Source: Promethearchaeota archaeon (GTDB lineage Archaea > Asgardarchaeota > Lokiarchaeia > Sigyniarchaeales > SOKP01). Taken from it: a stretch of 64,000 nucleotides of DNA. The notes beneath the pieces are model-generated. The model did no database searches, was not told the DNA's origin, and saw nothing but the letters and a program-made list of their open reading frames with translations. This document shows positions 27,716 to 30,714 of this stretch, one piece after another; position 1 is the stretch's first letter, and every line of letters starts with the position of its first letter. The translations under genes were made by a program, and so were the position numbers. The stretch covers positions 1 through 64,000 of the forward strand of contig JAHLWP010000016.1 in assembly GCA_019057865.1 (NCBI GenBank), written 5' to 3'.

Positions 27716-30714
27716 CTACCCCATTTTTTCTTTTTTCCATTCTATATATCCTTTAGTTTCTTTCCCACGCCATATAGATTTTTTACCTGTTTCCTCCTCA
27801 TATTGTTTCTGGAGAGCTTCCTCATCATGAATTTTTGCTTCTACTTTTTTAGGTTTTTCCTTAACAGCCACTTTTTTTGGTTTCTTTTCAGTAACTTCTT
27901 CAATTTTAATTTCTTTTTTCTTCGCAGGAGGAGCTTTTTTAATTTCAGTACGAATCTTTTCGACATCAAGAGCTTTTGCTTTAAGGAGCAAAACGTCTAA
28001 ATTAACCGCATCCCCATGATCTGTATGCATTACATCAACACCATCATCGCCAAAGGCGAACTGGATTATATTTTTATCAGAATTCCTTACAGTTCCATCA
28101 TTTTCAATTACCATATCCTGTAAAGCATTAACAAGCCTTCTCTGCATATATCCAGATGTGCTTGTACGTACTGCTGTATCAACAAGGCCCTCTCTTCCAC
28201 CCATTGCGTGAAAGAAAAACTCTACTGGTTTTAATCCATTACGATATGATGATGAGACAAATCCTCTAGATTTAGGACTAAGATCATTAACCTTAAAATG
28301 TGGAAGTGTTCTAAGGGCATATCCACGATTAATTCTTTCTCCTCTGATTGCTTGTTGTCCAACAACAGCAGACATCTGACCTAGATTTAAAATATTACCT
28401 CGAGCACCGGATTTTGTCATGATAACTGAATGCGCCTTATCCCCAATATAATCTGCTGCAAGTTCTTCGGCTTCTTTACGGGCTTCAGCTAATACTTGTC
28501 GTATTCGTAATTCTAAAGTTTCTTTCATAGAACGTCCAGGAGCTCTTTTCAATATTTTAGTATCATTTTCATAAAAAGCTCCTATAAGTCTTTCAGATTC
28601 GTCATTAGCGTCTTTTAATATCTTTTGGATGGCTTCAAAAGCTTTACCTTTAACATAAACTTCATCTAATCCCATTGTCATTCCATTTTGGCGAATAACA
28701 TGTAATAACATTTTTGTTGCGCTATCTAAAAATTGCCTTCCTCGCGCATTGCCATGATCCTTAATAATACGTTGTAAAATGCTATTTGACTGCATAGCAC
28801 CAAATGAATTCTCATCAATTGTGCCAGTTATTAAATAACCATTTTTAATTTCGACATATGCATCATAGGGACAATCTTCTTCTTCACATACATTACATTT
28901 CTTACAGAATTTCGATCTTACCCTTATATTTAAGTCATCAGGAAATAAAGTACTAAAAATCTGCTTACCGGAATACATAATTTCAGGATCAGTAACTGCT
29001 GGTTCTAATTGATCCAAACTAAAATCAGGATTATTTTCAAAAATATCTCCAAGATACAATAATTTCAATGTGCTTTTTTTATTGTATAATGCGTCTTTAC
29101 TCGTAAATTGGAAAACACTTGATATAAAATCTTGAATCCCTCCTAATATTGGCCCACCAAATCGGGGTGATAATATATGTTCTTGAACCTTAAGTAATAG
29201 TTCTGCCTCTGTTCGAGCTTCTTCACTTTGAGGTACATGTAAATTCATTTCATCACCATCAAAATCTGCATTATAGGGAGGGCATACAGTTAAATTTAAC
29301 CGAAATGTTTTACCATCCATAATTTTAACTTCATGAGCCATTATCGACATCCTATGGAGTGAAGGTTGTCGATTAAATAAAACCAAGTCTCCATTACTTA
29401 AATGGCGTTCAACCGTAAACCCGGGTGTTAACATATCAGCAATGATCTTTCGATTTTTTACATACCGAAGATCAATTCTTCTACGATCATTTCGTATTAT
29501 GTAATTAGCTCCTGGATGTCTATAAGGACCACTTAAAACCAGCTGTTTCATTTCTTCAATATTCCAATCATTAACATTAGTTGGAATGGTTAAGATTTTA
29601 GCAATTTCTATTGGTACTCCAACTTCATTAATACTAATGTACGGGTTTGGAGATATTACACTTCTTGCTGAAAAATCAACTCTTTTACCACTTAAATTAC
29701 TTCGAAATCTTCCTTCTTTACCTTTTAATCTTTGAGTAAGCGTTCTAAGTGCTCGACCAGAACGATGTCTGGCTGGAGGGATGCCCGAAACTTGATTATC
29801 AAGATAAGTAGTAATATGATATTGTAATAATTCCCATAAATCCTCAACAATTAGATGAGGTGCTCCTGCATCAATATTTTCTCTTAATCGTTGATTAATT
29901 CGAATAACATCTACTAATTTATGGGTTAAATCATCCTCAGACCGAATACCACTATCTAGTGTAATTGATGGTCGTGCGCATACAGGAGGTATAGGTAATA
30001 CAGTAAATATCACCCATTCAAGTCGTGCATTTTCAGGAGAAATACCGAACGTCCTGAGATCGATATCAGTCATCTTCTTTAATCGTTCTAGAATCTCAAT
30101 AGGTGTTATTCGCCGAGAGCCCTTCCCTTCTTCCTCCTGGTAAAACGTTGTAGGTTTTTCAATTATAATTTTTTTCTTTTTAGCTCCACAATAAGGACAT
30201 ACTTTACTTTTTCTAGCGCGTTTGAATACAAGCTTAGCAGCATCTTCATCTCCTTCAAAAAATAATTTTCGATGCTTGATTTGCTCTTGTCTGAATTTCT
30301 CTTTTTCTTCTTCAGTGAGCATTAATCTTGAGCATTCGGGACAAATTGAACGTAAAACTTTTAAAACTTTCTTTGCATAACCTACATGAATAACTGGACG
30401 GGCAAGCTTTATACTAAGGCCTCGAAATGAGGCAAAAATCTCTCTATTTAGACTTTAGGGGTGAGAGGCCCCAAAAAATGCCCGAAATGCCCCATACAAT
30501 TACTCACGAGATTTCCACAAGTCTGACAACGTTGTCCTGGTTCAATTGTCCCAAGTCTTTGATCCATTAATCCACTCGGAATCGGAAGACCATCCTCATC
30601 ATATGTGTCAGCAGTGATAATTCGTGCTGCTGACATTTTTCGAATCTCATCAGGACTAAGTAAGCCAAACTTGATTTTTTCTATCAGCTTCGTTCTTGAA
30701 AATGTATAACTCAA
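27716..30714 (-). CDS. rpoA1: RNA polymerase subunit A' (Rpo1N), interrupted by a 65-nt insert; 977 aa if removed
   Basis: [10 protein letters not shown] catalytic motif; N-terminal CQTCG...CMGHFGH joins [30 protein letters not shown] after removing 30413-30477. Confidence 0.95.
30413..30477 (-). other. Candidate intron/intervening sequence in rpoA1 (boundary ambiguous by at least 1 nt)
   Basis: 65 nt, frame-shifting, contains stops; closed by the 10-bp stem UUGGGGCCUC/GAGGCCUUAG. Confidence 0.7.

Follow-up and report, generated by a model that had tools for sequence, protein, structure and literature searches.

How is an essential gene expressed when its coding sequence is interrupted by stop codons and a change of reading frame? 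The question is raised by rpoA′ in a genome of the Promethearchaeota, Asgard archaea of the Loki type (assembly GCA_019057865.1; contig JAHLWP010000016.1, positions 1 to 64,000, a stretch of 64,000 nucleotides (nt) referred to here as the window). On the minus strand, two open frames that together form the N-terminal two thirds of archaeal RNA polymerase subunit A′ (Rpo1N) are split by 65 nt (30477..30413), which contain stop codons and shift the frame after CMGHFGH. The first frame comprises 88 codons from a TTG start at 30714, with GGAGGT located 9 nt upstream of the start, and the second extends from 30412 over 899 codons to a stop at 27716, its first 300 residues sharing 71% identity with Lokiarchaeum ossiferum. 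An initial annotation of this DNA had described the interruption and concluded that it must be removed or bypassed, probably by splicing of the bulge-helix-bulge (BHB) type, and we consider removal from the RNA by such splicing through EndA, the tRNA splicing endonuclease, the best mechanism; its further proposal, a single 65-nt intron with a relaxed BHB motif, gave way to a different layout. Sequence comparison argues that the interruption probably consists of two adjacent canonical BHB micro-introns of 30 and 35 nt around a micro-exon of only 4 nt, which would be excised to restore the reading frame.

The insert is real and lies in the only rpoA′ copy

Absence of the insert from DNA reads and the presence of a second intact gene had been named among the findings that would refute the reading. 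A contig assembled from an independent study (DNA run X4, 30379-30760) includes the whole insert, which is therefore real DNA and not an assembly slip. The X4 version carries two substitutions within the insert, at 30458 and 30468, both structure-neutral: position 30468 falls in a loop, and the change at 30458 turns a G-C into a G-U pair in the hairpin of the first intron described below, so that the hairpin is kept. Furthermore, rpoA′ is present in one copy in the 4.26-Mb genome (99.7% complete; estimated contamination 5.15%), in which no second copy was found. A search of the genome for further copies of the insert returned only chance matches of 14-24 nt, and thus the insert is no repeated mobile element at the sequence level.

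Two probable intron families occur at the same site

To place the insert among its relatives, we compared 77 distinct rpoA′ sequences, taken from within the genus and from its neighbours, and scanned metagenome contigs in addition. The named relatives are Promethearchaeota metagenome-assembled genomes from marine sediments and cold seeps. In 68 of the 77 sequences GHFGH-IELARP is uninterrupted, whereas the remaining nine are interrupted at the GHFGH site; the initial annotation had advised checking relatives for inserts at the same codon. The nine carriers are as follows.

G017, G069, G044 and L088: 30-nt insert directly after CAU (30-nt intron alone)
G022 and G058: 85-nt insert after CAUAUAG (second-site intron alone)
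L104: 50-nt insert after CAUAUAG (second-site intron alone)
This genome and G062: 65-nt insert after CAU (both introns)

The metagenome pattern scan matched 103 stretches, 80 of which were taken as loci; six of these 80 lie in rpoA′, the others being chance matches to the degenerate pattern. Among the 80, the scan added at least five further carriers of the 30-nt insert alone (L158, L164, L186, L195 and L218) and a third double carrier, L177. There are accordingly two separate intron families at GHFGH, one of 30 nt with its cut at CAU| and one of 35-85 nt whose cut lies 4 nt downstream, at AUAG|. Each family occurs alone in some species; this genome, G062 and L177 have both. Within the 65-nt inserts, the first 30 nt end in GUCUAA, as in the 30-nt family, and are followed by AUAG, while the 3′ end characteristic of second-site inserts (a 5-bp hairpin with loop AUUUC, 4 nt, then A or G followed by UAUAA) is recognisable at the 3′ end of the insert studied here. 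As a separate observation, the open frames around rpoA′ in G048, G023 and G066 measure 951, 1001 and 1007 codons, compared with the usual 974-984, and have no insert at the GHFGH site.

A single canonical parse restores the conserved peptide

All one- and two-intron parses that have canonical motifs and restore the conserved peptide were enumerated exhaustively. EndA cuts a BHB after the second nucleotide of each bulge, and cut positions were assigned by this rule. The search returned a single parse, namely 30 nt, AUAG and 35 nt with intron 1 removed first, and it found no canonical single-intron parse that restores the peptide. When the insert was shuffled, only 1 of 200 sequences allowed any canonical, peptide-restoring parse. 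The elements of the parse, in transcript order, are listed below.

30714..30478, minus strand: rpoA′ exon 1, ending in ...CMGHFGH, with CAU at 30480..30478
30483..30480, minus strand: exon strand of the intron 1 central helix, GGGC, made of the Gly codon GGG and the C of the His codon; pairs with GUCU
30477..30448, minus strand: predicted intron 1, 30 nt, class HBh′; 5′ cut U30478/U30477 (bulge A-U|U) and 3′ cut A30448/A30447 (bulge A-A|A)
30476..30454, minus strand: inner helix h′ and loop of intron 1, formed by UUUUGGGG (30476..30469), loop CCUCUCA and CCCCUAAA (30461..30454), with one U.U mismatch
30453..30450, minus strand: intron strand of the intron 1 central helix, GUCU; 4/4 pairs with GGGC in the pre-mRNA
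30447..30444, minus strand: micro-exon AUAG, 4 nt, with AUA for Ile and the base that opens the Glu codon; identical in all three double carriers
30443..30409, minus strand: predicted intron 2, 35 nt, class hBH; 5′ cut G30444/A30443 (bulge A-G|A) and 3′ cut A30409/A30408 (bulge A-A|A)
30433..30419, minus strand: internal hairpin of intron 2, GCCUC, loop AUUUC and GAGGC, 4 nt upstream of the central-helix strand
30414..30411, minus strand: intron strand of the intron 2 central helix, GUAU; pairs with exon strand AUAU
30408..27716, minus strand: rpoA′ exon 3, starting AG CUU GCC CGU (..E L A R P) and ending at the stop codon; the blastn match with the sister genome ends exactly at 30408
30407..30403, minus strand: exon 3 strand of the intron 2 outer helix h, GCUUG; 5 bp with CGGGC (30484..30480)

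The product of this parse, CAU AUA GAG CUU GCC CGU, encodes GHFGH-IELARP and is colinear with every intron-less relative. The same cut rule, applied to every carrier tested, yields GHFGHIELARP, the peptide of the uninterrupted genes. Each of the two introns has the 4-bp central helix required by the motif definition of a recent preprint (10.64898/2026.10.13.758758), two 3-nt bulges on opposite strands, a colinear product and a flanking helix (h or h′) with no fewer than 2 contiguous pairs. In intron 1 this helix is h′, with 3 pairs, a mismatch and 4 pairs, while h has none; in intron 2 it is the outer helix h, which after removal of intron 1 has 5 bp here and 3 bp in G062, the inner helix h′ having 2/4 pairs that are not contiguous.

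The strongest competing explanation is the one first proposed, in which a single 65-nt relaxed-BHB intron is cut at CA|U and AG|U and the mRNA encodes GHFGH-IKLARP. The join is in frame and free of stops, and in that formal sense it holds that no residue is lost; yet the naive join reads I-K, whereas the residue after GHFGH-I is E or D in 82/82 uninterrupted archaeal sequences, and K is confined to intron-2 carriers read naively. Under the two-intron parse the peptide is HIE, which all relatives share. The central helix of the CA|U...AG|U register, CGGG/CCUU, does have the 3/4 pairs reported for it and makes no canonical motif, a shortfall that alpha-beta endonucleases, which tolerate relaxed motifs (PMC5829648), might accept. 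The stems that the initial annotation had described exist, and the strongest local structure is its 10-bp stem, UUGGGGCCUC/GAGGCCUUAG (30474..30465 with 30423..30414), which is part of the minimum-free-energy fold of the pre-mRNA (z = -2.57 relative to shuffles). This stem, however, bridges introns 1 and 2, and neither it nor the proposed inner helix can form in the G062 and L177 inserts, where the corresponding bases form two local hairpins instead, with compensatory changes; a functional or regulatory role for the stem therefore finds no footing. In addition, both halves of the insert exist separately as complete canonical introns in other species, and the AUAAAG that would encode I-K has its homologue in the 3′-terminal bases of intron 2 (H strand and bulge AA) followed by exon AG in G022, G058 and L104. 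Taken with these facts, excision as one 65-nt intron is very unlikely. The two layouts differ by one base at the spliced junction, GGGCAUAUAGAGCUUGCC for two introns and GGGCAUAUAAAGCUUGCC for one 65-nt excision; a junction CAUAUAGAGCUU, or an intermediate lacking only 30477..30448, would be incompatible with the single intron. Enumeration of all in-frame cut pairs in this genome gave further single-intron candidates with 4/4 central pairs; these lose FGH, gain FLGP or lie within a continuous helix, and they were discarded as irreconcilable with the conserved motif.

Covariation supports both BHB motifs

Compensatory changes that keep the helices were found among homologues of both introns. 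For intron 1, covariation was seen in six sequences and in an ungapped alignment of 12, in which 92.4% of cells are paired, compared with 75.6% in shuffles; none of 500 shuffles reached the observed value, a statistic that overstates independence among related sequences. Sliding the partner columns by 1 to 3 positions lowered pairing to at most 51%. Changes have occurred on both sides in 8 of the 12 pairs, and the central helix is 4/4 in all 12 members. Its third pair links an intron base (C/U) to the third, synonymous position of the Gly codon (GGG/GGA); counted as exon-intron, this pair is A-U in six sequences, G-C in three and G-U in three. Within the inner helix, the position of GGGG/CCCC is taken by GAGC/GCUC in G062, and the U.U mismatch is repaired to a pair in L177.

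The second family behaves in a similar manner. All six members have a 4/4 central helix and an internal hairpin with 5/5 pairs, each with a stem sequence of its own. Five of the six keep a 4/4 inner helix, in three different sequences, and this genome has 2/4.

These patterns also bear on the possibility that the inserts are excised by something other than EndA and RtcB, or are skipped by the ribosome in the style of T4 gene 60 or the mitochondrial byps. The inserts are short, hairpin-forming and patchily distributed, like bypass elements, and the action of EndA on them is presumed. Bypass elements, in which the ribosome skips a segment, need matching take-off and landing codons. Such codons are absent here: take-off would be at CAU, and neither CAU nor CAC precedes the resuming codon, which is AUC or AUA in the 30-nt family, in any carrier. 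The 35-nt intron also shifts the frame. The compensatory pair between exon and intron and the invariant 3-nt bulges are predicted by BHB splicing and not by bypass. No Rfam family, ribozymes and self-splicing introns included, reached threshold in the window, and a tRNA scan of the window found nothing. We give bypass, or excision by other enzymes, a slighter chance still than the single intron. A self-splicing intron or small ribozyme was rejected, there being no Rfam match and 30 and 35 nt being far below the size of self-splicing introns.

The second motif would be completed by removal of the proposed first intron

In the two-intron layout, the exon strand AUAU of the intron 2 central helix is composed of A30479 and U30478 from exon 1 and A30447 and U30446 from the micro-exon, and these bases are contiguous only in the absence of intron 1. 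In the pre-mRNA the helix accordingly has 3/4 pairs (AAAU/GUAU) and the outer helix is not adjacent; after removal of intron 1 it has 4/4 (AUAU/GUAU). When intron 1 was removed in silico, the unconstrained minimum-free-energy fold contained the hairpin, the exon helix and an A/U helix of 4 bp that is one position out of register in the AUAUA repeat. Because its removal completes the intron 2 motif, intron 1 is probably removed before intron 2. Such ordered removal would keep the 4-nt micro-exon from release as a free fragment. The initial annotation had raised conformational control of splicing, which our analysis leaves without support; the nearest idea that the data favour is this dependence of the intron 2 motif on the prior removal of intron 1.

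The genome encodes the enzymes that such splicing would use. There are two EndA paralogues, of 200 and 207 amino acids (aa). The closest match of the 200-aa paralogue is the Aeropyrum pernix chain 3p1z_B/3ajv_B (E = 3e-35). It aligns gap-free across an N-terminal stretch containing KPR and, on reading its sequence, appears to keep the residues that a catalytic subunit should have, Tyr, His and Lys. The 207-aa paralogue has Ser at the position of a His in M. jannaschii EndA that we take to be catalytic. Judged by sequence, the pair is of the alpha-beta two-subunit architecture, which has been reported as common in Asgard genomes. An RtcB RNA ligase is also encoded, so that both enzymes expected of a host of BHB introns are present. 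Alpha-beta endonucleases accept hBH and HBh′ motifs (PMC4090602; PMC5829648), and from these studies we presume a similar substrate breadth for the enzyme of this genome.

The DNA, the motifs, their covariation, the colinear product and the enzyme genes are direct observations, and the course of cleavage, ligation and order that we derive from them would run as follows. The alpha-beta EndA would cut after the second nucleotide of each bulge, and RtcB would join the resulting ends. Intron 1 would be excised first, its excision would create the full intron 2 motif, and intron 2 would then be excised.

Several points weigh against this account. The minimum-free-energy fold of the pre-mRNA (-39.2 kcal/mol) is built on the non-conserved 10-bp stem, the best fold that keeps the intron 1 motif (-35.0 kcal/mol) is worse by approximately 4 kcal/mol, and the transcript up to the micro-exon, folded alone, lacks the intron 1 motif. 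Given that the long stem is thermodynamically favoured, it would be left to the enzyme or to co-transcriptional folding to pick out the intron 1 motif. Moreover, the intron copies of this genome are the least perfect of both families: the inner helix of intron 1 has the U.U mismatch and there is no outer exon helix, and the inner helix of intron 2 is 2/4. Both families are small, with 12 and 6 sequences that are related to one another, the assigned cut positions come from prior knowledge of EndA, and no precedent for a 4-nt micro-exon between endonuclease-type introns was found in searchable papers. Metatranscriptome runs X15, X16 and X18 and one DNA run were aligned to 29900-30760; the metatranscriptome contigs cover only 30153-30408, span none of the inserts and are neutral on splicing. 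One RNA contig, from X18, continues into ...CAT ATCG..., and its source is an intron-less relative and not a spliced form.

A probable recombination endpoint and codon spelling at the intron site

Interruptions at this site are scattered among close relatives. In a maximum-likelihood tree of the exons, the nine carriers each stand singly among intron-less sisters, and their distribution requires nine changes, the maximum possible. The sister genome G012 lacks the intron and is 97.9% identical in exon 3 (1350 nt) but 83% in exon 1, and its blastn alignment breaks off at precisely 30408, where intron 2 has its 3′ end. Upstream of 30408 identity to G012 is 83-90%, approximately 90% over some 3 kb (to about 33800), and then 94-95%; elsewhere in 55 kb of synteny, identity to G012 (L003, L151-L153) is 93-98%. 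Between G012 and G055, the differences are even on both sides of the site. The abrupt change of identity at 30408 suggests that a recombination endpoint coincides with the introns, and most simply the intron-bearing segment would have been imported from an unsampled congener. Among the sampled genomes, no close donor of the divergent upstream tract was found, the best exon 1 match being G062 at 86.5%. In X4, a contig of depth 81 (30082-30408) stops exactly at 30408, and the intron-bearing contig has depth 19. Judged by this difference of ~62x, the larger part of that population may have another sequence, perhaps without the intron, upstream of the same exon 3 start.

The same abrupt change of similarity, together with the contamination estimate given above, could be taken to mean that two populations were joined into a chimeric contig at a conserved gene, the reading-frame problem then not being biological, or else that rpoA′ is broken, as a decaying pseudogene or by a harmful insertion. 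This is the least probable of the explanations considered, for the essential rpoA′ has no second copy, its two exons are intact and conserved, and exon 1, the inserts and the first 30 nt of exon 3 were assembled together from the DNA of the independent study; a chimera would not create two BHB motifs, and the two-intron layout shared with compensatory changes by G062 and L177 implies selection on structure.

A trait of the exons goes together with intron presence. It concerns the following element.

30403..30399, minus strand: GCCCG of the Ala-Arg codons in exon 3, complementary to (C)GGGC of exon 1, its spelling tied to intron presence

The potential pairing of the flanking exons (CGGGCA/UGCCCG) had been pointed out at the outset and does exist. 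GCCCG is the spelling in 9/9 carriers and in 8/82 non-carriers; across phylogenetically independent pairs, 7.7 changed in the same direction and 0 in the opposite (sign test, p ~0.008). The exception is the metagenome carrier L195, which has GCTCG. The spelling could act as a clamp between the exons, keeping the two halves in place for ligation, or it could be flanking sequence that was co-converted.

Combining these results, we entertain, at a little short of even odds, a wider reading in which rpoA′ needs two obligatorily ordered rounds of EndA and RtcB and the micro-introns spread between species in recombining alleles. The obligatory order would follow from a recognition helix in the second intron that only the first ligation completes, and the spread from the way carriers are scattered over the tree and from a breakpoint in similarity exactly at the intron. 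If true, the closest prokaryotic relatives of eukaryotes would have protein-only mRNA splicing as a dynamic trait of the whole genome.

Two observations concern the surroundings of the gene. Approximately 5 kb downstream of rpoA′, in the same operon, rps12 has a 30-nt insert (25030-25059, minus strand) with an in-frame stop after ...TAFLPG. It forms a canonical motif of the HBh′ class, like intron 1: CUGG/CUAG pair as the central helix, the bulges are AG|U and AG|A, and the inner helix has 9 bp. Its removal restores FLPGDGALNF, which makes it a second candidate intron of the BHB type in the gene cluster and speaks for the reading of the rpoA′ insert given here. Just upstream of rpoA′ (30715-33162), the open-frame list contains no rpoB-sized frame on the minus strand, and the next listed frames, 31104-31724 and 31702-33162, lie on the opposite strand.

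Comparison with known systems

With two introns in rpoA′, the catalytic subunit of an Asgard RNA polymerase appears to depend on EndA-type splicing twice within 70 nt. The layout, a micro-exon with the second motif lying across the first junction, makes ordered splicing a testable prediction. Close relatives with neither intron, one, the other or both at the same site constitute a natural experiment, and the site informs on intron gain, loss and movement as well as on the constraint that supplying half of a splicing motif places on a coding sequence. In practice, gene callers will show rpoA′ of such genomes as split or frameshifted. The searchable literature yielded no BHB introns in Asgard mRNA, only the tRNA-intron preprint, and among endonuclease-type introns of archaeal mRNA the searchable papers described cbf5 of Crenarchaeota alone (PMC2738675).

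The BHB intron in the pre-mRNA of cbf5, which encodes a pseudouridine synthase, was shown to be spliced in crenarchaeal RNA (Yokobori et al. 2009, PMC2738675, and studies cited there). Both cases involve a short intron in an archaeal protein-coding gene with a BHB built partly of exon sequence, patchy gains and losses among relatives, and removal presumed to occur through the tRNA splicing endonuclease and a ligase. The case presented here differs in its host gene, in its phylum, Promethearchaeota (Asgard), in the presence of two introns 4 nt apart and in the dependence of the second motif on the first splice junction, and its splicing is deduced from DNA.

Non-canonical and multiple tRNA introns, known from Thermoproteales and from Asgard archaea (10.64898/2026.10.13.758758; PMC4090602), share with the rpoA′ introns the motif classes (HBh′, hBH and hBHBh′), similar sizes, the alpha-beta endonuclease, several introns per gene and repeated gains where the exon supplies half of the motif. 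Unlike those introns, the rpoA′ pair resides in an mRNA, where no tRNA body holds the exon halves and the cuts must keep the reading frame; the exon half-helix is made of Gly and His codons, a synonymous third position of which covaries with the intron.

Protein-only excision of a short mRNA intron from stem-loops, with joining by a tRNA-type ligase (RtcB in animals), is also known from the unconventional splicing of HAC1/XBP1 in eukaryotes (PMC4090602). That system uses Ire1 and not EndA, acts on two stem-loops rather than a BHB and belongs to a regulated stress response. The bypass elements of T4 gene 60 and the mitochondrial byps resemble the rpoA′ inserts in being short, hairpin-forming, stop-containing and patchy and in lying within essential coding sequences; the rpoA′ inserts are set apart from them by the lack of matching take-off and landing codons and by covariation specific to the BHB.

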